Positions 9,163-30,372 of a stretch of DNA of 32,000 nt are shown here, piece by piece (within the stretch, counting starts at the first letter, position 1; every line of letters begins with the position of its first letter). The position numbers were made by a program, and so were the translations under genes. Origin of the DNA: an uncultured Clostridia bacterium. GTDB taxonomy: Bacteria > Bacillota > Clostridia > Oscillospirales > Ruminococcaceae. A model generated the notes under the pieces. That model made no database searches, was not told the DNA's origin, and worked only from the letters and a program-made list of their open reading frames with translations. The stretch covers positions 1 to 32,000 of the forward strand of contig CAMVGH010000005.1 of assembly GCA_947166945.1 (NCBI GenBank). The letters run 5' to 3'.

Positions 9163-9792
9163 TTATCCGGTCAGGCTGAATTTCGTTTCAGTCCCCTCTT
9201 TCAGTCTTTTGAAATTTTCTTTGTGCCTTGCGATCACAAGCAGCGCCGATAACGCGGAAAGCACCAGCACCGCCGGACTTTCCGCGCCGAGTATCGCAAG
9301 CATCACCGGGCAGGAGAGCGATGAAACGCAGGCGCATACCGACATATACTTTACCGTGAACAGAAGGATCAGAAACAGTACCGTGGCTATCAAAGCCATT
9401 CTCCAGTCAACGAACCATATCGTTCCGAATCCTGCCATAAAAGCCTTGCCGCCCTTGAAACCGTACCACACGGGAAAGCAGTGTCCGAGCATTCCGAACA
9501 GCCCGGTGAAAGCCGCGCCGAACTGCGTCATACCGTAAAGACTGCCGAATATGACCGAAGCCGTGAATGCCGGTACCGCAGTTTTCAGTATATCGAGAAG
9601 CATAACGGATACCGATGCCGGATTGAGCCCATAGGCCCTCTTGAAATTGGTGAAGCCGGGATTACCGCTTCCGAGTTTTCGGATATCCTGCCTGTAAAGT
9701 GCTTTTGAAATAATTATAGCCGGATTGAGACCGCCGAGCAGATATGCGGCGGCAGCCGCTGCTGCGCACAATAAATAAAACCGGATATCCAT
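9163..9792 (-). CDS. plsY: Glycerol-3-phosphate acyltransferase PlsY (acyl-phosphate dependent)
   Basis: 209-aa polytopic ORF with the hallmark GSGNPGFTNFKRAYG motif. Its start lies 2 nt after the fakA stop. Confidence 0.9.
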   Translation of the reverse strand: MDIRFYLLCAAAAAAAYLLGGLNPAIIISKALYRQDIRKLGSGNPGFTNFKRAYGLNPASVSVMLLDILKTAVPAFTASVIFGSLYGMTQFGAAFTGLFGMLGHCFPVWYGFKGGKAFMAGFGTIWFVDWRMALIATVLFLILLFTVKYMSVCACVSSLSCPVMLAILGAESPAVLVLSALSALLVIARHKENFKRLKEGTETKFSLTG

Positions 9793-9794
9793 GA

Positions 9795-11426: not shown

Positions 11427-12325
11427 TACTTGTTCTCCTCCGCTCTGTAAGTTACTTCCTTTCCGAAGCCCCACACGCCTATGGCATCGGGACCCACAGA
11501 CGCACCGATTATAGGTCCGATATATACCGTGACGATATCTTTCGGTTTTATTATATCATTTACCATATTTTTCAGATTGCTGACCTCTTCCGGGTCACAG
11601 TCCGCGTGCGCAATGTAAACCGTCTGCGCTGATGCGTCTCCTATGCTTCCCGCAAGCAGATCTGCGATCTCTTCCAGCGATCTCAGCCGTCCGCGTACTT
11701 TCTTTATCGGTGTCTGCACACCGTCGGCATCGGAAATGAGTATCGGCTTCACTCCCATAAGGTTTCCGAAGAAAGCACTGCTTGCAGTGACGCGTCCCGC
11801 GCGTTTCAGAGAATCGAGAGAATGAACAGTCACGAACTGATTTACCCGCTTTCTTGCAGAACATACAGCCTGTACGATCTCATCGTGATCCTTTCCCTCT
11901 GATGCAAGCTCTGCCGCAAAGACAGCAAGCATACCTATGCCTATGCTCGAATTCATTGAATCAATGCAGGAAATCCTTGCGTCAGGATATTCTTTTTTCA
12001 GTTCTTTTGAAACGACAAGGCCTGTATTTACAGATCCGGATTGTTTTGATGAACAGCCTATATAAATAATATCATATCCTTTGTCAAGGTATTCTGTGAA
12101 TATCCGTTTAAACTCATTCACGGGAACTTGGGTCGTTGTAATACGTTCTCCGCTGCGCAGGATATCATAGAACTCCTTCGGTGTCCGATCGTCCCATGAG
12201 AGAAGCGCGGGCGACTCTTTCCCCTTATAAACCGTGTTCATCTTCGCATAGTCAATATCGTACTTTTCCAGCAGATCTGTACTCAGATCGGCGCAGGAAT
12301 CCGTTATGATCTTGATGTTATTCAT
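11426..12325 (-). CDS. fakB: DegV family fatty-acid-binding protein (FakB-type)
   Basis: The track ORF runs to 12445. The start is placed at ATG 12323-12325 (MNNIKIITDSCADL...) after GGAGGAAAACAC. DegV hallmarks are present: ITDSxxDL, GCSSKQSGS, IDSMNSSIGIG. It is directly coupled to fakA. Confidence 0.9.
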   Translation of the reverse strand: MNNIKIITDSCADLSTDLLEKYDIDYAKMNTVYKGKESPALLSWDDRTPKEFYDILRSGERITTTQVPVNEFKRIFTEYLDKGYDIIYIGCSSKQSGSVNTGLVVSKELKKEYPDARISCIDSMNSSIGIGMLAVFAAELASEGKDHDEIVQAVCSARKRVNQFVTVHSLDSLKRAGRVTASSAFFGNLMGVKPILISDADGVQTPIKKVRGRLRSLEEIADLLAGSIGDASAQTVYIAHADCDPEEVSNLKNMVNDIIKPKDIVTVYIGPIIGASVGPDAIGVWGFGKEVTYRAEENK

Positions 12326-12342
12326 GTGTTTTCCTCCGTGAT

Positions 12343-13452
12343 TTATTCCAATAGAAGTTTTGCGATCGCCTTTGCCGCATCGGTACGCAGTTTTTTCATT
12401 TTGCCGGCAAGCACCATACCGTTTTCCATGCAATATCCGAGACATTGCCGAAGCTCCGCGTCACCCCTGTATGAAAGGCAGACATTGTGTCCGGCAAGGA
12501 ATTCGAGGTTAAGGCGTTCCTGACCGTATGACTCTCGGTTTATTATCATCGGGAGCCCTATATTTATCATTTCCGTGGTGCTGATACCGCCGGCTTTTGT
12601 GACAGCCGCGTCGCTTGCCGCCATATATTTTTCGACTTCATCGGTGTAACCGATATTGACAAGCTTTACGCTGTCAGGGATCGTCATTTTTTCGACCGCA
12701 TCAAAGGATCTCTTATTTCTGCCGTTTATAACTATCACCTGACAGGGGATCCCGCACTTCATCAGACTTTGTACGATCCGGTGAGCCCCTGCCCAGTCCC
12801 CGCCGCCGAACATCACAAGTATCGTAAACATATCTGCGTCAAGACCAAGCTCGCCCCTTACCAAAGCCTTATCATAGTCAAGCAGAAAAGCTTCTTTTGT
12901 CGGTATTCCCGTCACAGCTATCCTGCTTTCATCAAATCCCATCCGGATACAATCCGGTATAAGCTCACGATGTGCGACAGTTATAATGTCGGCATCTGAA
13001 GCGCTGTTCCAATACGGTGTGACATTGTAGTCAAGATTCGACAAAATTATCCTGAACCTGAGGTCATACCGCTTCCGCAGAATCGTTGCCGTTATAGCCG
13101 GGAAGAAATGCGTGCAGTATATCACATCGGGGCTGATATCCCTGATCCGCTTATATACGCTTTGTGTCATGCCCTCGGCGGCGCGCAGAACAGCGGCATT
13201 TCCGCGTCTGTGTTCGCTCCCGTTCTGTGCCGCATAATATCCGCGGTCGTAGATCCCCGGAATGATGCTCATTGAGGCTGCGTAGCCGTACTTGTAGATC
13301 AGCCTTGTCTGTCTGTCCGAACAATCCTTCATCACGTCGGTTACGCTTATCCCGACACTGCTGTCTGCCGCTTTCAATGATTCAGCTACCGCCCCGGCAG
13401 CTGAATTGTGACCGCTCCCGATACCTGCGGAAAGGATAAGTATTCGTTTCAT
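12343..13452 (-). CDS. Diacylglycerol glycosyltransferase (MGDG-synthase N-domain + GT28 C-domain; UgtP/YpfP-like glycolipid synthase)
   Basis: The ORF starts MKRILILSAGIGSGHNSAA (ATG 13450-13452; the track begins 2 codons earlier at a GTG). The C-terminal VTKAGGISTTEMINIGLPMI motif is typical of the GT28 C-terminal domain. Confidence 0.8.
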   Translation of the reverse strand: MKRILILSAGIGSGHNSAAGAVAESLKAADSSVGISVTDVMKDCSDRQTRLIYKYGYAASMSIIPGIYDRGYYAAQNGSEHRRGNAAVLRAAEGMTQSVYKRIRDISPDVIYCTHFFPAITATILRKRYDLRFRIILSNLDYNVTPYWNSASDADIITVAHRELIPDCIRMGFDESRIAVTGIPTKEAFLLDYDKALVRGELGLDADMFTILVMFGGGDWAGAHRIVQSLMKCGIPCQVIVINGRNKRSFDAVEKMTIPDSVKLVNIGYTDEVEKYMAASDAAVTKAGGISTTEMINIGLPMIINRESYGQERLNLEFLAGHNVCLSYRGDAELRQCLGYCMENGMVLAGKMKKLRTDAAKAIAKLLLE

Positions 13453-13478
13453 AGGCACTAACCTTTTTCATATATATC

Positions 13479-15187: not shown

Positions 15188-15310
15188 GGACATTATAGCA
15201 TAGAAATATAAACTGAAAATAAACTTTTCGTACTTTTTCGGAAATTTTCTTTATTTTTTCAAAAACACTGTTTTGTTTATTTTCAGTTTAGATTTGTATG
15301 TTATTATATA
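15188..15310. repeat. Palindromic divergent-promoter module, copy B
   Basis: AAACTGAAAATAAAC (15210-15224) and GTTTATTTTCAGTTT (15275-15289), 50 nt apart. The minus-strand -10 TGcTATAAT (15192-15197) and the plus-strand TATTAT (15302-15307) each lie 12 nt beyond an arm. Confidence 0.7.
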
Positions 15311-15311
15311 T

Positions 15312-15343
15312 AAAACGGCGGCCGCTCCGAGACAGCCGTTTTT
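15312..15343 (+). promoter_or_regulatory. Terminator-like hairpin in the 5' leader of the RR/HK operon (possible attenuator)
   Basis: AAAACGGC (15312-15319), 15-nt loop, GCCGTTTTT (15335-15343). A second GC-rich hairpin follows: GGAGCGG (15364-15370) / CCGCTCC (15381-15387). Confidence 0.35.
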
Positions 15344-15407
15344 ACGCAGGGGCGCGGGAGAATGGAGCGGCAGAGGCTCCCCGCTCCGGTCAGATATGGA
15401 GGAACAA

Positions 15408-16082
15408 ATGATAAATATACTTGCAGTAGATGATGATAAGAACACGCGCCGGCTTATCGAAGAAGTTCTCAAAGGCGCGGGGTATAATGTCATAACAGCG
15501 GAAAACGGCGCGGACGCGCTGGAAAAGCTTGACAGCGAACATATAGATCTGATCGTTCTTGATATAATGATGCCGGAAATGGACGGTTACGAGCTGACGG
15601 AAGCTCTGCGGAACTCGGATAATGATCTGCCGATTTTGATGATCTCGGCAAAGCAGCTCCCCGAGGACAAGCGCAAGGGCTTTCTTGTGGGTACCGACGA
15701 CTATATGACAAAGCCAATCGATGAAGAAGAGATGCTCCTGCGGATAAAGGCGCTGCTGCGCCGGGCGAAGATCGTCAGCGAACGGAAAATAGAGATAGGC
15801 GATGTTACGGTAAGCTACGACAATATGAGCGTGACCCGCGGCGGTGAGACAGTCACCCTGCCACAAAAGGAGTTCCTGCTTCTGTACAAGCTTCTTTCCT
15901 ACCCCGGCAAGATATTCACCCGCATACAGCTCATGGACGAGATCTGGGGCAACGACAGCGAAACAGGGTGGGAAACGGTAACGGTGCATATAGGCAGGCT
16001 CCGCAAGCGTTTCGAAAACTGGAATGAATTTGAGATCGTGTCGGTACGCGGTCTCGGATATAAGGCGGTAAAAAATATATGA
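15408..16082 (+). CDS. OmpR/PhoB-family response regulator
   Basis: The start is placed at ATG 15408 (MINILAVDDD...), 5 nt after GGAGG; the track ORF extends upstream through the promoter. Acceptor region DLIVLDIMMPEMDG. C-terminal winged helix LPQKEFLLLYKLL...VTVHIGRLRKRF. Confidence 0.9.
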   Translation: MINILAVDDDKNTRRLIEEVLKGAGYNVITAENGADALEKLDSEHIDLIVLDIMMPEMDGYELTEALRNSDNDLPILMISAKQLPEDKRKGFLVGTDDYMTKPIDEEEMLLRIKALLRRAKIVSERKIEIGDVTVSYDNMSVTRGGETVTLPQKEFLLLYKLLSYPGKIFTRIQLMDEIWGNDSETGWETVTVHIGRLRKRFENWNEFEIVSVRGLGYKAVKNI

Positions 16083-17158
16083 GTAAGCTGTCACGGGAAG
16101 AAAGAAGGTCACGCATAGCACTGTCACTGCTTGTTACTGTTGTCATTTTTGCACTGCTTGTCGTGATAGGCGGAACGATCACCGGACTGGTCTTTCTGCT
16201 TATAAATCTTGGTTTTGTTTCGGACAACAGACTGCTCGAGCACGGAGCAGCAGTCGCCATTCTTGTTATCATCAGTGTTCTGCTCGGAGGAGCGTTGTCC
16301 TATCTTTTCAGCCGTATAACAATGAAGCCGGTAAACAGGATAATAGACAGCTTCAATCAGCTTGCTTCGGGAAATTTCAGCACACGGCTTGAATTTACAG
16401 GATCATGGGCAAAACACGCAACGGTCAGAGAGATAACCGACAGCTTCAATACAATGGCAGAGGAGCTTGAAAACACGGAAATGCTGCGTTCCGACTTTAT
16501 CAACAATTTCTCGCATGAGTTCAAAACTCCGATAGTGTCGATATCCGGGTTTGCTAAACTGCTCAAACACGGTAATCTCACTGAAGAACAGAAAGCCGAA
16601 TATATAAGCATCATAGCAGAGGAATCATCACGTCTCGCAAGTATGGCGACAAATGTTCTTGATCTGACGAAAGTGGAAAATCAGACCATACTCACCGGTC
16701 AGACCACATTCAACCTCTCCGAACAGATACGGGGCTGCATACTGCTGCTTGAAAGCAAATGGAGCGCAAAACACATCGAGCTGCACATAGATTTTGATGA
16801 GTATGATGTTTATGCCAACGAGGAAATGCTCAAGCAGGTATGGATAAATCTGATAGACAACGCGGTCAAGTTCTCGCCGGATTACGGTATCGTTTCGGTC
16901 GGGATATCGAAAAATAACGGGCTTATCACAGTCTCTGTCACCAACAGCGGCGTGGATATCCCCGCCGAATGTATTGACAGGATATTCAACAAGTTCTATC
17001 AGGCTGATGAGTCCCATTCCTCCGAGGGTAACGGCATAGGGCTTGCGATAGTGAAGCAGGCAGTGAAGCTGCACGGAGGTACGGTCATCGCGGACAGCAG
17101 AAAAGGCAGAACGACCTTTACGGTCATGCTGCCGGCGAAAAAGGAAGCAGATATATGA
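16079..17158 (+). CDS. Sensor histidine kinase (2 TM with short loop, HAMP, HisKA, HATPase)
   Basis: ATGA overlap with the RR stop. Two N-terminal TM helices separated by ~12 aa. HAMP-like PVNRIIDSFNQLASGNFSTRLE. H-box FSHEFKTPI. G-boxes NSGVDIP...GNGIGLAIVK. Confidence 0.9.
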   Translation: MSKLSREERRSRIALSLLVTVVIFALLVVIGGTITGLVFLLINLGFVSDNRLLEHGAAVAILVIISVLLGGALSYLFSRITMKPVNRIIDSFNQLASGNFSTRLEFTGSWAKHATVREITDSFNTMAEELENTEMLRSDFINNFSHEFKTPIVSISGFAKLLKHGNLTEEQKAEYISIIAEESSRLASMATNVLDLTKVENQTILTGQTTFNLSEQIRGCILLLESKWSAKHIELHIDFDEYDVYANEEMLKQVWINLIDNAVKFSPDYGIVSVGISKNNGLITVSVTNSGVDIPAECIDRIFNKFYQADESHSSEGNGIGLAIVKQAVKLHGGTVIADSRKGRTTFTVMLPAKKEADI

Positions 17159-18999: not shown

Positions 19000-19755
19000 T
19001 CACTTCTTCATCTCCAGGACATACTCGTCATACTCAATCTTACTGTCCAGCGCCTTAGTCCTCATCTCAATAGCATAATCAGCCCACTTCTGAAACTCCG
19101 CCTGCGTCATTTTCTTTTTGAGATACCGGGCATAGTGAGCCTTGTATGCCTTGTGATAAACGCTCCAGATCGGGTCGGTCTTTAGCTTGTCGTTGAACTT
19201 CTTCCGGTGTCCGAGGTCTCGGCAGCATTTGTCAGGCTGCCCTTTGACCGGACGCTTACAGTAGTTGGAGTAAAAGCCGCGTTCCAGTACAAAGTACCGT
19301 CCGCACAGATCACACTTGCGGGGCAGATAGCGGTTCTGCAATCCCTTGAACAATTCAATATACAGGAAACCTCCGATCGTCGAGAAGTGATAATTCTCGC
19401 AAAGCACGGAGGTTTTCTTGCGTTTGAGGACTTTGTAGGTAAGCGTCATAGTGCCGGACGGTATGAGTTTATCATAATTGCTTAATTTCTTGCTTGCTTC
19501 GCTGTTGAACTCGTCAAGCACTTCCGCAATTTCTTCGTTTGTCAGGAATTCCTCGCGGCTGTGTATCTTTTCTAGAAACGGCTCATAGGCACGCTTCACG
19601 CGCAGCAAGTCCTCAAAAATTGTGATGTAATGGTAAATGAAGTCCTTTAGCTCGGCATTGAGTTTCAGAACTTCGTCTATCATATCCGGTTCATCTATTT
19701 CGTCAAGCGGCTCGCCGACACGGAATGAAGTCAGCATACGGTCATGCTTATACAT
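19000..19755 (-). CDS. Hypothetical Cys-cluster protein of mobile-element type (DUF6076-like by recollection)
   Basis: 251-aa ORF. Contains CDLCGRYF...YC...CC..GHRKKF, a zinc-ribbon-like cluster. No convincing RBS. Its stop lies only 6 nt from the convergent HAD stop. Confidence 0.6.
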   Translation of the reverse strand: MYKHDRMLTSFRVGEPLDEIDEPDMIDEVLKLNAELKDFIYHYITIFEDLLRVKRAYEPFLEKIHSREEFLTNEEIAEVLDEFNSEASKKLSNYDKLIPSGTMTLTYKVLKRKKTSVLCENYHFSTIGGFLYIELFKGLQNRYLPRKCDLCGRYFVLERGFYSNYCKRPVKGQPDKCCRDLGHRKKFNDKLKTDPIWSVYHKAYKAHYARYLKKKMTQAEFQKWADYAIEMRTKALDSKIEYDEYVLEMKK

Positions 19756-19845
19756 ATGTCAAAGAGCCACTAAGTAACCCCATGCAATAGGCAGAATCAA
19801 ATTCGATTACAACATATCAATTCATTGAAGAGAGCAGCGTTTTAT

Positions 19846-20370
19846 TCAGGAACGTTGCTCTTTTTGAAAAAAATCGCGTTTTAAGCCCGTAAAGGTAATG
19901 GGAATGGAAAGTATATTACCCACCGATTCCGGACGATTTACAGAGGCAAAAATTACCGTTTTTCTTCCCGGATCCGTCCCGAAAATGAACAGTTCAAGGC
20001 AGCTTCCTTTAGCGGAAGCAAAATGCAGGAAGGAGGTCAGCATTGCAGGCACGTAATGCCGAGAACAGGTATTCATACGGAAGTCAGCCCAAAGTGCCGC
20101 AAGGATGCGGCTGTATGCGCTGTGCCGACATATTTCCTCACAAGGGAGATTATCGGCAATATGGCGGTAATGCTGTAAGAAACAGCCGTGTGCGAGGTTT
20201 CCGTACACGGCTGTTACATAACTTTTATAATTTAAATATCCGATTCGCTTTTGGATTTCTGTAATTGAACGAGTTGCATACTGAGCATAGAGATTTGTTA
20301 CAGCCGAAGGGGCACCGGGTATCGCGGTACTGTACACATCTGTTATATCATAACAGCCGGTATAAAGCAA
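19846..20370 (-). CDS. Hypothetical protein (weak call; TTG start, no RBS)
   Basis: It is the only long ORF in 19756-20472 on either strand. No recognisable motif. The stop codon sits in the loop of a hairpin (19832-19860). Confidence 0.3.
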   Translation of the reverse strand: MLYTGCYDITDVYSTAIPGAPSAVTNLYAQYATRSITEIQKRIGYLNYKSYVTAVYGNLAHGCFLQHYRHIADNLPCEEICRHSAYSRILAALWADFRMNTCSRHYVPAMLTSFLHFASAKGSCLELFIFGTDPGRKTVIFASVNRPESVGNILSIPITFTGLKRDFFQKEQRS

Positions 20371-20472
20371 GTATCATTTTACGGTATCAGCAGCGGAATC
20401 TTTATGCGGTGCCATGATGACGGAGCGATCGGTGCTTTTTCGGGATACTGACCTGCGGGGGAGTTCTTTTTG

Positions 20473-23400
20473 TCACGATATCATTGATCCGGCTTTCCTT
20501 ATAACTCGCTCATAAACTTCCATTGCATAATCATGCTTTTTCTTTATATCATCGAGCCGCCCTTCTTTTCCCGCACACTCAAGCTCGTAAGCAAGTTCGG
20601 AGAATCTGACCGCGCCTATCATCTTTGATGTGCTTTTGAGTCCATGTATCAGCACGGTATATCGTTTCAGATCACCGTTTTTCAATGCCGATTCAAGCTG
20701 TGCGGTCTTTTCCGTTTTTTCCTTGATATAGGTGTCAAGCATTTCACGGTAGAAGTCCTCTTCATTCATGCAATACTCCAGCCCGACATTTTTATCTATC
20801 ACATCATTTGTCTCATCGTCCTGCGTGTTTTCCTGCACCGGACCGGCGTGAGCCGTCTGTGCCGCGGCTGTATCATCTGCCGCGGCAGCAGGAACGGGAT
20901 CCGCAGAAGTCCCGCCGGTCCTGATGTCAGCGTCAGCGGTCTTATATCCGATTTTTTCGGCGGGCAGATACTTTTTCAGTATCATTTCAAGACTTCTGAC
21001 TTCAACCGGCTTCGACAGATAATCGTCGAAGCCTGCCGAAAGGTATTCCTCCTTCGCGCCGACTATGGCATTGGCGGTCATCATTATCACCGCAGTGTTC
21101 TCGCCCAGCAGACCTGCAGTTTCCATATTCTTCCGCGTTTCAAGACCGTCCATACCCGGCATCATGTGGTCAAGGAAGATAATGTCATACCTGTTCTGTG
21201 TAACCGCCTTTAAAGCGTCGCTGCCGCTGGCAACGATATCGACCTTTATGCCTGTGCGTTTGAGAAGTCCTTTCGCAACTTTAAGATTCATCATGTTGTC
21301 ATCTACGACAAGAACTCTCGCATCGGGAGCGTAGATATACTCCCGGCTGTTTTCATTGTGACGGGACAGGCGCAGACGCTCCTCATAGTCACCGATAGGC
21401 TCGTCGTCAACGACCTCCTGCACTATATCGAACCAGAACCGTGAGCCCTCGCCGTAAACGCTGTCAAGCTGAAGCTCGCTTCCCATCATGACGAGAAGCT
21501 TCTGAACGATGGAGATGCCGAGACCGGTACCCTCGATCGCCCGGTTTTTCTCGCTGTCAAGCCTTCTGAACGACTCGAAAAGCGCATCTCTGTCCTCGGG
21601 GCGGATACCGATACCGGTGTCCTGCACCTCGGTACGCAGCGTTATCCTGTCTCCGTTTCTGTCCGCAATAAGCATACGCAGGGTGACACTGCCCTTGGGA
21701 GTGTATTTGACCGCGTTTGTGAGTATATTGGTGATTATCTGTCTTATGCGCACATCATCGCCGTAAAGAGTTTTGGGCAGCTTCCTGTCGATCTCTGTCC
21801 TGAATTCAAGATTCTTCTGTTCGGCTCTTTCAAGTACCATATTGACCAGATCGTTTATCATCAGCGCGGTGTCATAACTTACAGGCACTATCTCCATTTT
21901 TCCGTCCTCTATCTTTGAAAAGTCGAGAATGCTGTTTATGAGCGTAAGCAGAGTGCGTCCGGCATTCTGTATGTTCTCGGAGTACTCCCTGATATCATCG
22001 CTGCTGCTCTCGCGCATTATCATTTCATTCATACCGAGAACCGCGTTTATCGGGGTGCGTATCTCATGCGACATCTGCGCCAGGAACTGCGATTTTGCCT
22101 GACCTGCTTTTTCGGCTTCCGCGGCGGAATTTTCGAGAGTTTTCCGCACCCGCTTCTGCCATACGATCATTATATGGAGCAGTGAGCCTGTTATCGCTAT
22201 ACCCGCGCCGAATATCACTATGAAGACAATGATGTAGCGTACAAGACTGCCGTATATCACATTCCAGTTTTTCGCGCAGACAATAGTGAAGCCGGAGGTA
22301 GGGTCGGGTACTGCATAAAAGGCTTTGTAGCTGCCGTCATAGTCTTTGATGATGACAGTGTCCCCGGCGAGCACCGCATTGAGATAACCCGCCTGTTCAA
22401 GTGTTACCACGTTGCTTTCCGACATCTGATACTCCGGAGCGGGGTGATTTATGATCTGCCCGTCCGCGTCCGCAAGAAACGCATACCCCTCATCGGTATA
22501 GCTCGAATCAAGTATGCCGGTAAGCTTGTCAAGGAAGAAATCTATTCCGAAAACACCTAAGAAATTGCCGGTCTTGTCATATACTCTTTTACTGAATGTG
22601 ACGCAGTAAGCTCCTATCTGTTCGTCATAATACGGGGCGGATACGGAGAAGCCGTCCTCTTTTTCCGACTCTATGGAATCTATGTACCACTGTCTTTCCT
22701 CAACGTGCCAGTCATCATCGGGCTCCCAGCCGTTGTTCATAATAACCGTATGCTCCGCGCGGGGATCGGTCATGTATGATACCGAGATATCATCATACTG
22801 CACGGTGATATCGTTCAGCCATTCAACGCATTTGTCATAATCACCGAGCATTTCCGGCTCGGCGGAAATAAAGCTCACAAACATATCCAGTACGCTTTTC
22901 TGCTCGACTATCCACGACTCAAGTTCTGATGTGTAATCTCCCGTTTCCTTTTCCATACGGGTATTGCCCCAGTTTATCATAAGTACCGTCGATATCGCGA
23001 TGCACAGTATCATCGTTACCGTGAGCAGCGCTATGATACCGGCGCAGGCATGCTTGTTGGTGCGGTCGGAGATGTCTGAATCGGCATGTACGTCTTTTAT
23101 TATCCTGCCGCTCTCATTCTCCTTTTTGTCGGCATCGGTATCTACCGTATAAAGCGAGGCAAGTGCGGATTTCATTTTGAGCGAGGACTCACGCAGACGC
23201 TCCATATAGACTTCCGGCTCGTCGCTTGACCGGAGAAGGCGGTAATCGCTGCGCTTCACTATGTCTTCCATAGGCGCACTTATTCTGGCAACCGCGCCGC
23301 TGACTGCGCTCTCGGTATATTTAAGGCGCTGCTCTATCCTTCCCCTGTAACGTATGCTGAAAATGTACAGCAGTATCATTCCCGCAATAAGGCAGAGATT

Positions 23401-25143
23401 TACCGCCGTATTCGCAATGATACCTGTCATATTGTTCCGGTAGAGAGCGGTCTGGCTGACTACGGACAGCAGATACCATTCATTCGCGGTACGGTTGTAG
23501 AAGACAACGCTGTCGGTACCGCTTATTTTTGTGTGGAAATTAAGTGAGCTCTCACCGGAGGAAAGTATTCTCTGGAATACGGCGGTGTACTGCGGCAGAG
23601 CTGCGGAAATAGGCTGACCTACCGCGGCAACATCGGCATAACCGACTATCTGACCGCTCCCGCTGACAATAAGGGCGTCACCGCCCGCAATACTTATCCT
23701 TGAAACGCTCTCCTGCAAGCCTGTCAGGTTGAAGTCGAGCGCGACTACAGTCGTTCCGTCGGACAGCAGTTCCGACACCGTGAAGCACATTTCTCCCGAC
23801 GCAAGATCAAGATATGGGGCAGTATAATAGATACTGCCGCTTCCCTTTTTGCGTGCGCCCTTGTACCAGTCGCGCTGAACAGGGTCAAAATCCTCCGGCA
23901 TCACAAAATCCGGAATGCTGTACCAGTCCTCGCCCGCGGCATAGACGTTCGTGCAGCTTCCGACGGAATTGTAGTCCTTGTTAGTTTTGAGATAGGCGTC
24001 GATCTCGTCTCCCGAAGCGTTTTCCTTGTAGAGCAGCTCCAGTCCCGACGCTATCTGTCTCGTGAGTATCTCCGCCTCGTACAGTGTCTGTTCAAGGTCT
24101 CCCGATACCGATTCGAGCTGTGCGCGTCCTATCGCGTCTGCCTGTCCGCTTATCATCGAGTAGAACAGCCGGAAGTTGAATACCAGCACCAAACTCATGG
24201 CAGCGGTGAACACCGCCAGCAGCGCATAATTGAAGCGCTTTGAAAGGATATGCTCCGTTCCCCTCCTGCTCTTTTCCTTCGGACTGTACGCAAAGAGCAG
24301 ACCGAAGCAGCCCCTGCCGCAATTGCAGGCTACAGCCGAGGAAGCCTTCACGAAATAAATATTGCGGAATATCGCGTATTTCCGGACTGTCTCCGCTATT
24401 TTTCCAAGCTCGGTGTCATCGAGTCCCGCATAGGTTATGAAAAGCGTGTCGGTCTCAATGTCATTCCTGCCGTGCAGCTGTCCGCGTATATAGGAGCGCA
24501 TCGACGCTTCGTGAAGTCCGTACACCATGCCGCCTACGGCGATCCTGCTTTTCTTCATCACAAGCATGGGACGCAGCAGCATTCTTTCACACAGCTTGCG
24601 CATGCCGCTGCCGAGCCTGCCGTTCCTGTTCATAAACTCAAGCTCGCGCACTATGAATGTCGATGATACCCTTGAAGCGTACTCACTGACCTCCGCACGG
24701 AGCTGCTGCATATTATGCTCTTCTCTTGCAAGCTCCGCCGCCCTGAGAACGACAAGTCCGAGGCCGCTGGAGATCTGTCCGGAGTCGAGAACATATACGC
24801 CGGGTACGCTTTCAGCCGCTTTTACCGCGTTGTCGTAGCCCTTGCTCGCATACCGCCCCATTGTTATGTGAAGTATCGCGGTATTGCCGCGTATGTTTTC
24901 TCTGAAAAAACTCAGATAATCCTCTTCCGAAGCAGCGTCCGACATAACAACATCGTCCGTTGTTTCCATATAATCAAGAAGATCGTCGGGGCTTATTTCC
25001 ACGCCGTCAAGAAACTGACCGTCCCGTGTCCTGACAATGTTGGGAAGGACTCTGACCGAATATTCCCTGACAAGCTCCGGCGGCAGGTCACAGACGCTGT
25101 CGGTGGTTATCAGTATGTGAGGCTGTTCCCTTTCTTCACTCAT
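20473..25143 (-). CDS. Hybrid sensor histidine kinase with N-terminal DegV domain: DegV - TM - dCache - TM - linker - TM - dCache - TM - HisKA - HATPase - REC - HPt
   Basis: 1556-aa ORF. Aa 10-287 align with the stand-alone DegV at 11426-12325 (ILITTDSVCDL; VLDSGQISSGLGLVVLRAAELA). Cache motifs RDWYKGA and ERQWYIDS, each between TM helices. H-box QMSHEIRTPINAV (His codon 22066-22068). G-boxes DTGIGI...GTGLGISIV. REC IIFLDHMMPGMDG. HPt HGLKSTSKMIGA. Confidence 0.9.
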   Translation of the reverse strand: MSEEREQPHILITTDSVCDLPPELVREYSVRVLPNIVRTRDGQFLDGVEISPDDLLDYMETTDDVVMSDAASEEDYLSFFRENIRGNTAILHITMGRYASKGYDNAVKAAESVPGVYVLDSGQISSGLGLVVLRAAELAREEHNMQQLRAEVSEYASRVSSTFIVRELEFMNRNGRLGSGMRKLCERMLLRPMLVMKKSRIAVGGMVYGLHEASMRSYIRGQLHGRNDIETDTLFITYAGLDDTELGKIAETVRKYAIFRNIYFVKASSAVACNCGRGCFGLLFAYSPKEKSRRGTEHILSKRFNYALLAVFTAAMSLVLVFNFRLFYSMISGQADAIGRAQLESVSGDLEQTLYEAEILTRQIASGLELLYKENASGDEIDAYLKTNKDYNSVGSCTNVYAAGEDWYSIPDFVMPEDFDPVQRDWYKGARKKGSGSIYYTAPYLDLASGEMCFTVSELLSDGTTVVALDFNLTGLQESVSRISIAGGDALIVSGSGQIVGYADVAAVGQPISAALPQYTAVFQRILSSGESSLNFHTKISGTDSVVFYNRTANEWYLLSVVSQTALYRNNMTGIIANTAVNLCLIAGMILLYIFSIRYRGRIEQRLKYTESAVSGAVARISAPMEDIVKRSDYRLLRSSDEPEVYMERLRESSLKMKSALASLYTVDTDADKKENESGRIIKDVHADSDISDRTNKHACAGIIALLTVTMILCIAISTVLMINWGNTRMEKETGDYTSELESWIVEQKSVLDMFVSFISAEPEMLGDYDKCVEWLNDITVQYDDISVSYMTDPRAEHTVIMNNGWEPDDDWHVEERQWYIDSIESEKEDGFSVSAPYYDEQIGAYCVTFSKRVYDKTGNFLGVFGIDFFLDKLTGILDSSYTDEGYAFLADADGQIINHPAPEYQMSESNVVTLEQAGYLNAVLAGDTVIIKDYDGSYKAFYAVPDPTSGFTIVCAKNWNVIYGSLVRYIIVFIVIFGAGIAITGSLLHIMIVWQKRVRKTLENSAAEAEKAGQAKSQFLAQMSHEIRTPINAVLGMNEMIMRESSSDDIREYSENIQNAGRTLLTLINSILDFSKIEDGKMEIVPVSYDTALMINDLVNMVLERAEQKNLEFRTEIDRKLPKTLYGDDVRIRQIITNILTNAVKYTPKGSVTLRMLIADRNGDRITLRTEVQDTGIGIRPEDRDALFESFRRLDSEKNRAIEGTGLGISIVQKLLVMMGSELQLDSVYGEGSRFWFDIVQEVVDDEPIGDYEERLRLSRHNENSREYIYAPDARVLVVDDNMMNLKVAKGLLKRTGIKVDIVASGSDALKAVTQNRYDIIFLDHMMPGMDGLETRKNMETAGLLGENTAVIMMTANAIVGAKEEYLSAGFDDYLSKPVEVRSLEMILKKYLPAEKIGYKTADADIRTGGTSADPVPAAAADDTAAAQTAHAGPVQENTQDDETNDVIDKNVGLEYCMNEEDFYREMLDTYIKEKTEKTAQLESALKNGDLKRYTVLIHGLKSTSKMIGAVRFSELAYELECAGKEGRLDDIKKKHDYAMEVYERVIRKAGSMIS

Positions 25144-27193
25144 CTGTGTCCTCCCGCAAAAATTGTTCCAGAACTCTGTGCATATTTTTCATGGATACCG
25201 GCTTTGAAAGGAATCCGTCAAAGCCCATACTGAGGAAATTGTCCCTCGCGCCGCTCATGGCGTTGGCGGTAAGCGCCACTATCGGTCTGTGCCTGTAATA
25301 GCCGCCGCTCAGATTCCGTATCGCTTTCATAGCGTCCGTACCGTTCATATCCGGCATCATGTGGTCCATAAATATGATATCAATGTTCTCGGAGCTGCAT
25401 ATACCGATAGCCTCCGGACCGCTCGCCGCCGAAAATACTCTTAATCCGAACCTTTGCAGCATGCCCTTTGCCACCATTATGTTCATCGGCTCGTCGTCCA
25501 CCACAAGAGCCTTCTTACCGGGCGGCAGAAGGGACAGCTCATCTTCGGTCTCAACGTCCATTCTTGCGGTCTGCGCTCCGGGACCGGATCGCTTTAAGAA
25601 GCCCACTACCGCCGGAAGATACACAGGCTTTCTGATGATGCTGACAGAACTGTCGGCGGGAAGCGTGAACTGGCCGCCCGAAAATACACATACCCAGCAT
25701 TGCTTTGCGATCCTTTCAAAATATGACGGGTCACTGCCATATTCGGCTTCGGCAATAAAAATGTGCGTTACGCCGCCCTTTTCCATCCGTTCTCTGAGCT
25801 GTGCCAGCGAGGTCACAACCGTTACGTCAACGCCCAGTTCTTCATGGACATGATCCACTGTCTTGTAATAGTACTCTCCCACTTCGCGACGCGCGTATTT
25901 CGACCTGTCAAACCAGCATACCGCATGATATTTTCCCGCACCGGAGATGCCTATGCAGCAAGTCCGGTCAGCCACCTTCTGCGGAACGGTGACGTGAACG
26001 TGAGTCCCCTTGCCGCTGCTTTCAAGTTTTACAAAACCGTGCATTGAACGCACTATCCCGTGGACTATCGCAAGTCCGAGACCAAGCCCGCCCCTGCGCC
26101 GCTCGGTGCTGTCATCGGCTGCAAAAGTGCCGCTGAACAGGCGGTTCCTGTATTTGTTCTCGATGCCCACGCCCGTATCATATACGTCTATATTGAGGTT
26201 GATATCATCTCCCTGCGGACGGGAGCTGACATAAAGATATCCGCCGCCGGACTCCGTGAATTTCACCGCGTTGTCAAGCAGACATTCGAGTATCTTGCGG
26301 AGACGCTTTGCATCGCCGATAAGCACACGCGGTACGGCAGGAGATAAATCGACTGCAAAATCCGCGCCTATGTATGACTTGGTAAAAACGTTCCGTATCG
26401 TGTCATAGATCACCGACTCCGTCTCGTACTCGCTTTCCGCGATACGGAAACGGTCAGTCTGAAGTTCGGAGAATATAAGTATGTCGCTTATCTGGCGCTG
26501 TATGCGCTTTCCGGCACTGTACAGCGCGTACAGGTCATCACTGTATTTTTCCGGAAGACCTGCGTCAAGCATCAGCTCGCTCAGTCCGCAGATCACGTTT
26601 ATGGGCGTTCTGAGCTCGTGGGACATATTGGCAAGAAACTGCTTTGTATCATTTTTAGCGTCTGCCGCTTCCCGGCGCAGTTCGTCCTTTTCATTCCCGT
26701 CCTTGCGGCCGATCAGGATAAAATATACGGCTATCCCCGCCGCGAACGAAAGGCAGAAGATCCCGAGAGCTATTCTTGAATAGACCGTAGTTGGAGTATC
26801 GGCATTCAGATATCCGGTTATAAAAATATTCACGGCGATGTATATAGGGTATGACAGAACCGTCAGCAGAACAAGCTTGACATCATTCTGCCGCGAGAGT
26901 ATAACTATAAGCAGGCACAGTAATATCGGTATATCGGTTATGGGTATGCCGTGAAGAGCATAGAACATCAGAACTCCGAGAATGACGATGATATACAGGT
27001 ACAGCCTGACCGCGGGCTTTCCCGTGTCCGTAAAATGCATCACCCAGCATAAAGCGCACGCACCGGTTATGATGGGTATAGCCGGAAGTTCCCACTGTGA
27101 CAGTACGATTATTATATCAAACAGCACCGTCATCACGGAAAACATACCGAGTAAGATCATGTGAAATGATGTTTCAAGATCCCTGCCGCGCAT
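25136..27193 (-). CDS. Polytopic hybrid histidine kinase (5-6 TM - HisKA - HATPase - receiver-like insert lacking the Asp - REC)
   Basis: 685-aa ORF. Hydrophobic for its first ~160 aa. H-box NMSHELRTPINVI. G-boxes DTGVGI...GGLGLGLAIV. Aa ~410-535 form an alpha/beta-like segment (HIFIAEAEY where a receiver would have D). C-terminal REC IIFMDHMMPDMNG. 8-nt overlap with the downstream gene. Confidence 0.9.
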   Translation of the reverse strand: MRGRDLETSFHMILLGMFSVMTVLFDIIIVLSQWELPAIPIITGACALCWVMHFTDTGKPAVRLYLYIIVILGVLMFYALHGIPITDIPILLCLLIVILSRQNDVKLVLLTVLSYPIYIAVNIFITGYLNADTPTTVYSRIALGIFCLSFAAGIAVYFILIGRKDGNEKDELRREAADAKNDTKQFLANMSHELRTPINVICGLSELMLDAGLPEKYSDDLYALYSAGKRIQRQISDILIFSELQTDRFRIAESEYETESVIYDTIRNVFTKSYIGADFAVDLSPAVPRVLIGDAKRLRKILECLLDNAVKFTESGGGYLYVSSRPQGDDINLNIDVYDTGVGIENKYRNRLFSGTFAADDSTERRRGGLGLGLAIVHGIVRSMHGFVKLESSGKGTHVHVTVPQKVADRTCCIGISGAGKYHAVCWFDRSKYARREVGEYYYKTVDHVHEELGVDVTVVTSLAQLRERMEKGGVTHIFIAEAEYGSDPSYFERIAKQCWVCVFSGGQFTLPADSSVSIIRKPVYLPAVVGFLKRSGPGAQTARMDVETEDELSLLPPGKKALVVDDEPMNIMVAKGMLQRFGLRVFSAASGPEAIGICSSENIDIIFMDHMMPDMNGTDAMKAIRNLSGGYYRHRPIVALTANAMSGARDNFLSMGFDGFLSKPVSMKNMHRVLEQFLREDTDE

Positions 27194-29651: not shown

Positions 29652-30299
29652 TCATACCTGCCTGTACATCGCAAGCATCATAGCTTTGAGCGTTTCAAGC
29701 TCCTTCATATCGTCAGATCCCGTTTCCGGCTTATATACAAGCCCCACCGCGTATCTTGTGACCGCCGCAAGCATGAGATGAAGCGTTGTTGAGAACATTT
29801 CCGCTTCCGGTATGTCGGTACGGACCGTCTTATCCGTCTTTGCCCGCTCATATATCATACGGAAGTACTCTCCGAAATTATCTATCATGCCATAGTATGT
29901 TTCAAGAGCAGTTTTTTCTGTTCCTGCACTTTCCACATACATATTGAACATCTGATTGAAACGCAGAAGATCCTTTTTCTCACGGTACAGCATCAGAAAT
30001 CCGTCAAGGTAGAATTCGAGGATTTCCGCCGCTGTCATGCCGTCAATGTTTGCTTCCTCACGCCTCTTGCTGTCCAGTTCCCGGATCTCATTCCATTTTT
30101 TTATAGCTACTTCGATCACAAAACCCTGTTTTTTTTCGAAATAACGGTAAAGTGTTGCTATCCCGCAGCCTGCCGCATCAGCGATATTCTGCATAGATAC
30201 GGACTCTATGCCTCTCTTTGTAAAGATCTCAAATCCTTTTTCAAGCAGAACAGTCCGCCTTGCAGCCATCAGTTCCGCATCAGATTCCCTGCTCCACAT
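29652..30299 (-). CDS. TetR/AcrR family transcriptional regulator
   Basis: HTH SMQNIADAAGCGIATLYRYFEKKQ. The start is placed at ATG 30297-30299 (MWSRESD...) because the first ATG of the track ORF (30351-30353) lies inside the predicted promoter. Confidence 0.85.
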   Translation of the reverse strand: MWSRESDAELMAARRTVLLEKGFEIFTKRGIESVSMQNIADAAGCGIATLYRYFEKKQGFVIEVAIKKWNEIRELDSKRREEANIDGMTAAEILEFYLDGFLMLYREKKDLLRFNQMFNMYVESAGTEKTALETYYGMIDNFGEYFRMIYERAKTDKTVRTDIPEAEMFSTTLHLMLAAVTRYAVGLVYKPETGSDDMKELETLKAMMLAMYRQV

Positions 30300-30343
30300 A
30301 CTCTTACCGCCTTTTGATGATCCATTGTCTATATTTGATAAAC

Positions 30344-30372
30344 ATTTTATCATAGGGTACGGAATTTGTCAA
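30344..30372 (-). promoter_or_regulatory. Sigma-A promoter of the TetR gene (TTGACA-N17-TAAAAT)
   Basis: Reverse strand: TTGACA (30367-30372), 17 nt, TAAAAT (30344-30349). Confidence 0.5.

Follow-up and report, generated by a model that had tools for sequence, protein, structure and literature searches.

The window, by which we mean the whole 32,000-nucleotide stretch of DNA analysed here, which comes from a rumen Clostridia bacterium, carries on its minus strand two histidine kinase genes (HK1 and HK2) and a response regulator gene that lie side by side (Table 1). HK2 is a single uninterrupted open reading frame (ORF listing) with an ATG start, and its product runs from an N-terminal DegV domain through TM1, a dCache module, TM2, a linker, TM3, a second dCache module and TM4 to HisKA, HATPase, REC and HPt domains. 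All four kinase and relay domains (HisKA, HATPase_c, REC and HPt) score over the Pfam cutoff, and the phosphorelay residues H1026, D1325 and H1500 each lie in a canonical motif; HK2 therefore has the makeup of a hybrid (unorthodox-type) histidine kinase. The linker between the sensor modules has no Pfam match at E<=1, and NCBIfam has no dedicated model for the protein: solely the generic DegV model scores over its cutoff, while all hybrid-kinase equivalogs fall under theirs. The preliminary description of this gene, a complete DegV domain joined to a hybrid kinase that has two dCache modules, REC and HPt, is borne out by Pfam and by the single reading frame, down to the four transmembrane segments, the three phosphorelay residues and the RDWY (R424) and RQWY (R817) motifs. 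By the positive-inside rule the DegV domain is predicted to be cytoplasmic, and the topology agrees with the one cytoplasmic (DegV) and two extracytoplasmic (dCache) modules proposed there.

Table 1. Features of HK2 and its neighbouring genes in the window (HK2 domains listed from the N to the C terminus)
Feature	Position	Strand	Evidence or remark
HK2, DegV/double-dCache hybrid histidine kinase with REC and HPt, 1556 aa	20473..25143	-	ORF, Pfam
DegV (FakB-like), aa 10-285, predicted cytoplasmic	24289..25116	-	Pfam, AF2, Foldseek
TM1, aa 304-322	24178..24234	-	hydropathy; Lys/Arg-rich segment KEKSRRGTEHILSKR just before
dCache module 1, aa 330-560, predicted extracytoplasmic	23464..24156	-	Pfam dCache_1
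TM2, aa 579-597	23353..23409	-	hydropathy
Cytoplasmic linker of ~105 aa, aa 598-702, joining the two sensor modules	23038..23352	-	
TM3, aa 703-721	22981..23037	-	hydropathy
dCache module 2, aa ~725-968, predicted extracytoplasmic	22240..22971	-	dCache_1, second stretch; MCP-like_PDC_1, aa 774-875
TM4, aa 971-989	22177..22233	-	hydropathy
HisKA, aa 1016-1081, phospho-acceptor His1026	21901..22098	-	Pfam
HATPase_c, aa 1128-1240	21424..21762	-	Pfam
Receiver (Response_reg), aa 1277-1386, Asp1325	20986..21315	-	Pfam
HPt, aa 1467-1532, His1500	20548..20745	-	Pfam
HK1, partner hybrid kinase, 685 aa	25136..27193	-	directly upstream of HK2
Response regulator REC-GGDEF-REC-HD-GYP, 786 aa	27197..29557	-	upstream of HK1 and HK2
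TetR-family regulator	29652..30353	-	upstream of the cassette; Pfam; weak association

HK2 is a genuine single gene encoding a four-pass membrane hybrid kinase. Its 90% cluster holds 33 full-length members of 1551-1561 aa from independent assemblies, and six species-level genomes carry it at 94-99% identity. The same architecture and operon are kept by three orthologues that are more distant, with DegV domains 57%, 50% and 47% identical. Since these full-length members and the unbroken architecture of the orthologues show that the fusion is no assembly error, and N-terminal DegV kinases are found also in related loci L001, L002 and L015-L020, the probability that two separate genes were joined artificially, through a frameshift, an overlooked stop codon or chimerism in the assembly, a reading for which we found no supporting point, is negligible. 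In the orthologue P0121, at 57% identity and with the same architecture as HK2, the DegV domain is 52% identical, compared with 50% for HPt, 58% for dCache module 1, 72% for dCache module 2 and 41% for the inter-sensor linker; DegV is thus not decaying, its identity being comparable to that of HPt and the first dCache module.

The assignment of the N-terminal domain is firm at the level of family and fold. Pfam DegV (PF02645) matches it with E 2e-38 and 132.7 bits (cutoff 27) over profile positions 2-278 of 280, and NCBIfam TIGR00762 with 146.2 bits against a cutoff of 99.7. An AF2 model (pLDDT 92.6, pTM 0.90) aligns in Foldseek with 45 DegV/FakB chains at TM 0.78-0.87, with E down to 1e-24, and by this model the domain keeps the two-domain EDD / FakB fold. 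It shares profile and two-lobed fold with the FakB/DegV proteins compared (S. aureus FakB1 and FakB2, S. suis FakB2, and 2DT8 of T. thermophilus), although the solved FakBs are only 18-26% identical to it and are free-standing proteins of about 290 aa, whereas here DegV is the N-terminal domain of a large membrane protein. The end-to-end relationship to the stand-alone DegV of the same window, asserted in the preliminary description, was reproduced by BLASTP (HK2 aa 1-291 against 11426-12445; 289 columns, 20% identity, E 4e-11). The mechanical reading frame of that stand-alone gene extends to 12445, and its DegV domain begins at aa 44, compatible with the start at 12325 given in the preliminary description.

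In FakB2 the fatty-acid carboxylate is bound by T61, S93 and H266 together with R170 (PMC10848957), and alignment to FakB2 places S68, S100, Asn274 and R176 of HK2 at the respective positions. Across 120 related clusters the S68 position is Ser in all 120, the S100 position Ser in 119, the Asn274 position Asn in 117 and the R176 position Arg in 75. Judged from sequence, these changes at the carboxylate site are conservative and compatible with binding, and the most likely ligand of the domain is a fatty acid or an acyl compound close to it. Binding may not be a property of the whole clade, since among distant members (50% representatives) the S93 position is G, T, D or N and the R170 position K, Q, L or Y. 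The preliminary description had pointed to the Ser-rich loop, and the difference is real (the canonical SS is replaced by G96-R97); it is, however, no evidence for lost binding, because the altered residues are the equivalents of S89/S90, and the carboxylate-binding S93 is a separate serine that is kept as S100.

The proposal that the domain was repurposed from hand-off to FakA, which had been hung on that loop, draws its support from other residues. The FakB substitutions L181D and R202A each abolish FakA binding (PMC10848957), and these FakA_C docking positions are R187 and Y208 in HK2. In the related family they are A, T or S for L181 and M, V, I or L for R202, whereas the stand-alone FakB of the window retains Leu at L181 and the Arg of the 'RG' motif. 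The R202 column differed between two MAFFT runs and was settled by HMMER pairwise alignments and the canonical 'RG' motif; under either alignment HK2 has no Arg or Lys at aa 205-210. A FakB-like fold and a predicted carboxylate site that are kept, combined with docking residues that are lost, most likely mark a regulatory module and not a substrate carrier. The domain might still pass fatty acid to FakA, the fusion merely localising it, given its fully FakB-like fold and a complete FakA/FakB/PlsY cluster that lies 9 kb off on the same strand (FakA at 9795-11474). This is very improbable in view of the altered docking residues, the loss of His266, the mere 20% identity to the window's own FakB, and the membership of the domain in a clade of His-Asp relay proteins that is embedded in signalling proteins across hundreds of genomes and, unlike FakB, has invariant residues of its own (C18, C185, C275 and H92).

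The two extracytoplasmic modules were compared with dCache-type amino-acid sensors. The AA_motif of dCache_1AA sensors reads YxxxxRxWY...Y...D (PMC8915833); module 1 has F419xxxxR424xW426Y427 followed by Y440/Y444 and a candidate Asp in VVALDF, and module 2 has W812xxxxR817xW819Y820 followed by Y838/Y839 and a candidate Asp in GIDFF. The motif is incomplete in both, its first Tyr being F419 and W812, and the gap to the second Tyr in module 2 is 18-19 residues against 13-17 in the AA_motif; the pairing of Tyr and Asp with Y144 and D173 of PctA was made by eye, unaligned, in both modules. The dCache modules would add inputs from outside the cell, probably amino-acid-like ligands.

HK1 has six predicted transmembrane segments, HisKA (H192), HATPase, a conserved insert of about 150 aa and a REC domain (D610). 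Its insert (aa 405-555) has no Pfam match at E<=1, and at the same threshold its transmembrane region gives just two insignificant matches (E ~0.2). The TGA stop of HK1 overlaps the ATG of HK2 by 8 nt, and start and stop overlap or abut likewise at the junction of HK1 and the DegV gene in 14 of 16 loci with an N-terminal DegV. In almost every one of 80 related loci, the gene immediately upstream of the one with DegV encodes a kinase of the HK1 type with the same insert, and the REC domain of HK1 is 48-61% identical to those of its orthologues from both operon types. The regulator upstream has intact GGDEF, HD and GYP motifs and is presumed to be the output of the relay; conservation of a REC-HD-GYP regulator, which may or may not have GGDEF, extends to L001, L002, L006, L007, L009, L010, L011, L014 and L017. 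A TetR gene, by comparison, also lies upstream in L001, though not in L002 or L006. Both the conserved partner kinase and the upstream c-di-GMP regulator had been overlooked in the preliminary description.

The fusion is not unique: across gut and rumen Clostridia, in at least 338 species-level genomes, phosphorelay proteins carry DegV domains of the same clade. The family is frequent among Lachnospiraceae and Oscillospiraceae from gut and rumen, and its cultured carriers include Acutalibacter caecimuris, Schaedlerella arabinosiphila DSM 106076 and Mediterraneibacter agrestimuris DSM 111629. Of the 80 loci examined, most encode HK-REC-DegV proteins, and in about 62 of the 80 (about three quarters) DegV is C-terminal, after REC; the other architectures are DegV-6TM-HK-REC-HPt, HK-REC-DegV-HPt, REC-DegV-HPt and a kinase-less DegV-HPt. 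The outputs in these loci are most often single receiver proteins, and c-di-GMP enzymes also occur.

Different parts of HK2 have different closest relatives. Its body (sensor, kinase core and REC) is closest to double-dCache hybrid kinases that lack DegV (P0122, P0123, P0130, and gene 1 of L019 and L020), with identities of 35-43% in the sensor, 63-68% in the core for most of them, and about 60% in REC. In these kinases, as in HK2, four TM segments and two dCache modules precede HK-REC-HPt; unlike HK2, they begin at TM1. The DegV domain of HK2, on the other hand, is closest to those of the DegV-6TM kinases (42-46% identity), and from this discordance we conclude that the kinase body was exchanged while DegV stayed behind HK1. 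Domain shuffling within the cluster is suggested by L019 and L020, where a DegV-less kinase adjoins HK1 and a DegV-6TM kinase. One suggestion is that kinase bodies were placed into a frame of DegV and HPt that itself stayed conserved, on which the HPt similarities (80 bits versus 48-72 bits) are too low to decide.

We hypothesize that Clostridia have built a specialised 'signalling DegV' clade into His-Asp phosphorelays, and that the DegV domain of HK2 binds lipid in the cytoplasm and acts as a regulatory module within a relay of two kinases that controls c-di-GMP, a reading to which we give a probability of roughly one half. The relay would consist of three genes: HK1 (6TM-HK-REC), the translation of which is coupled to that of HK2; HK2 itself, supplying the sole HPt; and the REC-GGDEF-REC-HD-GYP regulator. 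From the gene order, phosphoryl groups of both kinases would pass through His1500 to the regulator, which would make and break c-di-GMP, and the group of DegV relay proteins as a whole probably links cellular lipid status to c-di-GMP signalling. The analysis shows the integrity of the gene, its domains, the fold and residue pattern of DegV, the conservation of the operon and the distribution of the clade; from these we infer the identity of the ligand, the direction of regulation, the route of phosphotransfer and the c-di-GMP output. As for the point of action, the presence of the clade after REC, in the stretch from REC to HPt, and joined to HPt in a protein without a kinase makes an effect on REC/HPt phosphotransfer or on the partner receiver more likely than one on autophosphorylation alone.

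The preliminary description saw one cytoplasmic and two extracytoplasmic inputs converging on a single autokinase. In its classical form this would have DegV bind a cytoplasmic fatty acid and, as one of three inputs, control only the autokinase of HK2 through TM1 and the sensor. DegV does occupy the usual place of an input domain in HK2 and in its DegV-6TM-HK relatives, it lies just about 18 residues from TM1, and its predicted carboxylate site is retained. This reading is possible but doubtful: it is too simple for the 80 loci, in most of which DegV follows REC, and it must also accommodate the placements between REC and HPt and on the kinase-less DegV-HPt protein, as well as a kinase body that was swapped behind DegV with the HK1-DegV junction kept. 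With such placements, DegV is in general not best described as the input domain of a single autokinase.

We consider it unlikely that DegV has lost small-molecule sensing and was exapted for docking, dimerisation or membrane association, for example to recruit the HK1 receiver or to hold the relay at the membrane. That DegV might serve so as a ligand-independent scaffold is suggested by clade-invariant surface residues that differ from canonical FakB (Y218 in addition to C18, C185, C275 and H92), by the variable S93 and R170 positions of distant members, by the constant adjacency of DegV to a REC-ending gene or a REC domain, and by the membrane contacts of FakB caps (PMC10146087). The near-invariance of Ser, Ser and Asn in its own subfamily and in the 120 closest clusters is nevertheless hard to explain without a ligand. 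Nor is a fixed REC-DegV interface supported by the AF2 model of the REC-DegV protein P0105 (pTM 0.69), in which the linker has pLDDT <50 and the domains show no confident packing.

A quite improbable but more far-reaching alternative is direct coupling, in which an acyl-phosphate held by DegV phosphorylates the Asp of an adjacent receiver, or REC~P discharges onto the bound fatty acid. Phosphoaspartate and an acyl-phosphate are both acyl phosphates, and acetyl-phosphate donates its phosphoryl group to receiver Asp; in the DhaK/L/M system an EDD-fold substrate binder is coupled to a phosphorelay, and DhaK and DhaQ are distant fold matches of HK2 DegV in Foldseek. FakB proteins hold fatty acid and acyl-phosphate alike (PMC10146087). 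Direct coupling would explain why DegV sits in the post-REC slot that is otherwise that of HPt (which trades places with DegV from one operon type to the other), and why the predicted carboxylate site was kept and FakA docking lost. If true, a His-Asp relay would sense the pool of acyl-phosphate and fatty acid in phospholipid synthesis through exchange of phosphoryl groups and not through allostery. The idea is purely inferential, though: AF2 predicts no REC-DegV interface, roughly one family member in three lacks a conserved R170 equivalent, and we know of no precedent.

The preferred reading, a lipid-binding regulatory module in a relay, has partial parallels in known systems. In RpfC-RpfG of Xanthomonas, an HK-REC-HPt hybrid kinase that binds DSF, a fatty-acid signal, passes its signal to a c-di-GMP phosphodiesterase of the REC-HD-GYP type (PMC5391125). 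HK2 is likewise a hybrid HK-REC-HPt kinase paired with a REC-HD-GYP regulator, and a fatty-acid-type ligand is plausible for it too; RpfC, however, senses DSF by a short periplasmic/TM sensor (5 TM) in place of DegV and two dCache modules, and the clostridial system differs in having two kinases, a regulator with an added GGDEF, and a host among the Firmicutes instead of the Proteobacteria. The ORFs scanned in the window include no crotonase-type reading frame and no RpfF-type DSF synthase. One member of the DegV-kinase family bears the NCBI label 'RpfC'. In S. aureus the fatty-acid pool and Fak components are connected, indirectly, to the two-component system SaeRS (PMC5539427). The preliminary description cited this link, and its analogy to HK2 is conceptual only, as there is no covalent or known physical connection of DegV and kinase in the Fak-SaeRS case, and regulator and output are different ones.

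The recruitment of an EDD-superfamily substrate binder as a regulatory ligand sensor has a precedent in the Dha systems. In DhaK/DhaL-DhaR of E. coli and DhaQ-DhaS of L. lactis, EDD-fold substrate-binding subunits or their paralogues act as sensors for transcription factors, and PDB entry 2IU6, from the L. lactis system, is among the distant Foldseek matches of HK2 DegV. These systems belong to another branch of the superfamily (TM ~0.5), serve transcription factors and not a His-Asp relay, and are unfused.

Sensor domains known from two-component kinases include PAS, Cache, GAF and the like. A full-text literature search for DegV fused to a kinase, regulator or phosphorelay gave only unrelated co-mentions; consistent with the earlier statement that no characterised DegV-kinase was known, none is described in the literature searched, and the same holds for a phosphorelay into which a FakB-type lipid carrier is built as a module. 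If DegV reports the status of fatty acids or acyl-phosphate, these proteins would constitute a direct and genetically tractable link from the supply of membrane lipids to lifestyle decisions in major commensals, known links such as Fak-SaeRS being indirect. Their fused, split and permuted versions, which occur naturally, would also form a set with which the action of DegV on a relay could be dissected.

The preliminary description had read, from the DNA, a complete DegV domain joined to a double-dCache hybrid histidine kinase with receiver (REC) and HPt domains, and this is borne out by the ORF listing and by Pfam: HK2, the product of ORF 20473..25143 (-), runs for 1556 aa from an ATG start without interruption, and DegV, dCache_1, HisKA, HATPase_c, Response_reg and Hpt, the families it had proposed to search, are all matched. 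HK2 also scores above the cutoff of the NCBIfam DegV domain model, and the alignment to the stand-alone DegV at 11426-12445 was reproduced by BLASTP (HK2 aa 1-291, 289 columns, 20% identity, E 4e-11); H1026, D1325, H1500, RDWY (R424) and RQWY (R817) lie at the positions originally described. Four TM segments emerge from a Kyte-Doolittle scan, with Lys/Arg-rich stretches on their predicted cytoplasmic sides; this places the DegV domain, a linker of ~105 aa and the kinase core in the cytoplasm and both dCache modules outside. Each dCache module has most of the amino-acid-binding AA_motif, with the first Tyr replaced by Phe or Trp, so that amino-acid-like ligands are possible candidates.

Features of HK2 and of neighbouring genes in the window
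Feature	Position	Evidence or content
DegV	HK2 aa 10-285	Pfam E 2e-38, 132.7 bits vs cutoff 27, profile 2-278 of 280
dCache_1	HK2 aa 330-560 + second stretch	Pfam
MCP-like_PDC_1	HK2 aa 774-875	Pfam
HisKA	HK2 aa 1016-1081	Pfam
HATPase_c	HK2 aa 1128-1240	Pfam
Response_reg	HK2 aa 1277-1386	Pfam
Hpt	HK2 aa 1467-1532	Pfam
TM segments	HK2 aa 304-322, 579-597, 703-721, 971-989	Kyte-Doolittle
FakB2 T61, carboxylate site	HK2 S68	S 120/120 related clusters
FakB2 S93, carboxylate site	HK2 S100	S 119/120 related clusters
FakB2 H266, carboxylate site	HK2 N274	N 117/120 related clusters
FakB2 R170, carboxylate stabiliser	HK2 R176	R 75, Q 27, K 15 of 120 related clusters
FakB2 L181, FakA docking	HK2 R187	A/T/S in 120 related clusters
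FakB2 R202, FakA docking	HK2 Y208	M/V/I/L in 120 related clusters
Conserved cysteines	HK2 C18, C185, C275 (nt about 25090, 24589, 24319)	nearly invariant in signalling DegV clade
HK1 insert	HK1 aa 405-555; 25526-25981 (-)	between HATPase and REC
1012-aa single ORF	2914-5952 (-)	two SBP_bac_3 stretches, BPD_transp_1 permease domain, ABC_tran ATPase
Lipid cluster	9163-13458 (-)	PlsY, FakA (Dak2/FakA_M/FakA_C), stand-alone DegV/FakB, MGDG-synthase-like glycosyltransferase
Two-component pair	15273-17158 (+)	OmpR-type response regulator, HAMP histidine kinase; genes overlapping

The structure prediction proposed earlier for aa 1-290 returned a confident DegV/FakB fold (AF2 with 46 homologues, pLDDT 92.6, pTM 0.90), with TM 0.78-0.87 to 45 FakB/DegV chains in Foldseek and next matches to FakA_C and DhaK/DhaQ at ~0.5. 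FakB, the free-standing carrier serving FakA, holds the fatty-acid carboxylate through T61, S93 and H264/266, with R170 stabilising, and FakB2 L181D and R202A lose FakA binding (PMC10848957). Residue mapping, with FakB2 numbering verified against the 4X9X sequence, points to a polar ligand site that is essentially retained and FakA-docking hot spots that have been lost. The change noted earlier in the Ser-rich loop does exist, but it affects the equivalents of S89/S90 and not S93. In more distant 50% representatives the residues at S93 and R170 are variable, and the Ser/Asn signature is common to many stand-alone proteins of ~280 aa. In the window's canonical FakB the T, S, R and L and the Arg of 'RG' are all preserved, and the H266 position is Ser. 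In place of the three conserved cysteines, canonical FakBs carry Ser/Ala, Gly and Thr/Ala/Val, respectively. The ligand head-group motifs (TDSVC and NCG) are flanked by C18 and C275, and the cysteines might have a function in metal binding or redox chemistry.

DegV relay proteins are widespread rather than unique. At least 262 clusters matched HK2 aa 1-620 in a word-indexed search, nearly all of the best 120 combining DegV with HisKA, HATPase or REC. Pfam on examples distinguishes a majority type B (TM-HisKA-HATPase-REC-DegV, ~897 aa), a type A closest to the window protein (DegV-6TM-HisKA-HATPase-REC-HPt, ~1020-1070 aa), and REC-DegV, HK-REC-DegV-HPt, REC-DegV-HPt, dCache-HK-REC-DegV and kinase-less DegV-HPt forms. 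Scanning one genome for each GTDB species, guided by motifs, confirmed at least 338 loci, the best 80 of which carry HK-REC-DegV (62), DegV-HK-REC-HPt (8), DegV-dCache-dCache-HK-REC-HPt (8), DegV-HPt (1) and a REC-DegV fragment (1); one Oscillospiraceae locus with an HK-REC-DegV gene has an extra stand-alone signalling-clade DegV gene (L077:88-1032) directly upstream of its type-B cassette. Titles of these 80 name Lachnospiraceae, Oscillospiraceae, Acetatifactor, Hungatella, Oscillibacter and Lawsonibacter, and Schaedlerella arabinosiphila DSM 106076 and Mediterraneibacter agrestimuris DSM 111629 are cultured carriers. One type-A locus (L017, CAYOHM010000020.1) comes from a MAG that bears the label 'uncultured Alistipes sp.' (Bacteroidota); as all other labelled carriers are Clostridia, this probably reflects misbinning and not transfer.

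Operon reconstruction shows that a second hybrid kinase, HK1, almost always directly precedes the DegV-bearing gene. Its hallmark is an insert of ~150 aa that can be recognised in HK1 at nearly all 80 loci; in the window the insert has no Pfam match even at E<=1, and hydrophobic residues alternate along it in a manner suggestive of a degenerate receiver-like domain. Type-B loci read REC (or REC-HD-GYP) / HK1-REC-HPt / HK2-REC-DegV, and type-A loci and the window read [REC-(GGDEF)-(REC)-HD-GYP] / HK1-REC / DegV-...-HK2-REC-HPt. The HK1 REC of type A is 56-61% identical to that of type-B HK1-REC-HPt, the window's is 48% identical to the HK1 RECs of both, and HK2 RECs pair weakly with those of type B; both kinases are therefore orthologous across types, DegV and HPt having effectively exchanged positions. 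In the window the HK1 TGA overlaps the DegV ATG by 8 nt (ATGAGTGA); the upstream stop is overlapped by 4 or 8 nt, or abutted, in 14/16 N-terminal-DegV loci, L001, L002 and L006 being arranged likewise. Across the 80 loci DegV nearly always adjoins a REC, either in the same protein or at the beginning of the following gene, and HPt often accompanies it; DegV is thus a recurring relay module. A minimal relay (L060:4308-8593) consists of HK-REC (561 aa), DegV-HPt without a kinase domain (442 aa) and REC-GGDEF (437 aa). The window's upstream regulator is REC-GGDEF-REC-HD-GYP with GGDEF, HD and GYP motifs intact; since HK1 has no HPt, H1500 of HK2 is the only one in the cassette, and both kinases presumably feed the regulator through it.

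We hypothesize, with a probability of about 0.5, that the HK2 DegV domain is a cytoplasmic, membrane-proximal, lipid-binding regulatory module in a two-kinase/HPt relay controlling c-di-GMP; it would act more likely at the REC/HPt level than on autophosphorylation alone. A classical autokinase input is unlikely, and a scaffold without ligand, set beside the essentially retained polar site, somewhat more so. Direct acyl-phosphate/REC phosphoryl exchange is improbable; in an AF2 model of a REC-DegV protein the domains were not confidently packed against each other (pTM 0.69, linker pLDDT <50), leaving a rigid REC-DegV interface unsupported. The domain qualifies as DegV/FakB by fold and profile but fails the FakA-docking residue test for a functional FakB, and a tethered working FakB is very improbable.

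That HK2 is an artefact joining two genes can be dismissed: cluster members and orthologues from independent assemblies in practice exclude a missed stop or a chimeric assembly. The exact protein is in a public collection, in a 90%-identity cluster (n=33) whose 15 listed members, from independent assemblies, all measure 1551-1561 aa, under the NCBI names 'DegV family EDD domain-containing protein [Ruminiclostridium sp.]' or 'histidine kinase [Oscillospiraceae bacterium]'. Conservation of the fusion, which the preliminary description had proposed to test, extends to six species-level genomes (94-99% identity), each a MAG from rumen or gut, to two Lachnospiraceae MAGs (L012 and L013; DegV 50% and 47%) and, when 1.84 billion representatives were searched with aa 1-1010, to one other 50%-cluster representative of complete architecture (P0121, 1568 aa, 57% identity, HK2 6-1008 aligned to 3-1005). 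The DegV domain is under selection, because it is as conserved against P0121 (52%) as HPt (50%) or dCache1 (58%). The match to the closest relatives (L007, L010, L014; 94-97% identity) breaks off at 20542, ~aa 1534, just past HPt; in those genomes another HK-REC gene follows 4 nt past the stop, and in the window and L009 a 174-aa unannotated ORF and a DUF6076 gene (19000-20472) replace it. A strain-level rearrangement or insertion looks to have replaced the last ~22 codons.

With its two dCache modules, HK2 represents a rare chimeric form of the group. In domain-by-domain BLAST its sensor region (35-43%), kinase core (66-68%) and REC (~60%) are closest to DegV-less double-dCache hybrid kinases (P0122 and the first genes of L019 and L020), the core sharing no more than 48-52% identity with type-A DegV kinases, and its DegV domain most resembles type-A DegV (42-46%). 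In L019 and L020 the gene for the double-dCache kinase is directly followed by those for HK1 and a DegV-6TM kinase. From these similarity ranks and this gene order, HK2 appears to have arisen by domain shuffling inside such a cluster, in which DegV may have remained just downstream of HK1 as one kinase body was swapped for another.

Elsewhere in the window, the canonical lipid cluster lies 9 kb from HK2 on the same strand, the 1012-aa ORF would unite in one polypeptide an ABC importer's substrate-binding, membrane and ATPase components, and the two-component pair appears unrelated to the DegV cassette.

DhaK and DhaQ serve as sensors for DhaR and DhaS, a conceptual precedent within the EDD superfamily; 2IU6, a DhaQ structure, is among the Foldseek matches. 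RpfC-RpfG couples a fatty-acid-sensing HK-REC-HPt kinase to a REC-HD-GYP regulator (PMC5391125); the HK2 system shares this plan but has another sensor and two kinases, and no RpfF was seen among the window ORFs scanned. The Fak-SaeRS link is indirect (PMC5539427). The literature searches yielded no paper on DegV in kinases, regulators or HPt proteins, and NCBIfam no dedicated model. HK2 is a real feature, a sensor kinase or relay carrying an undescribed module.
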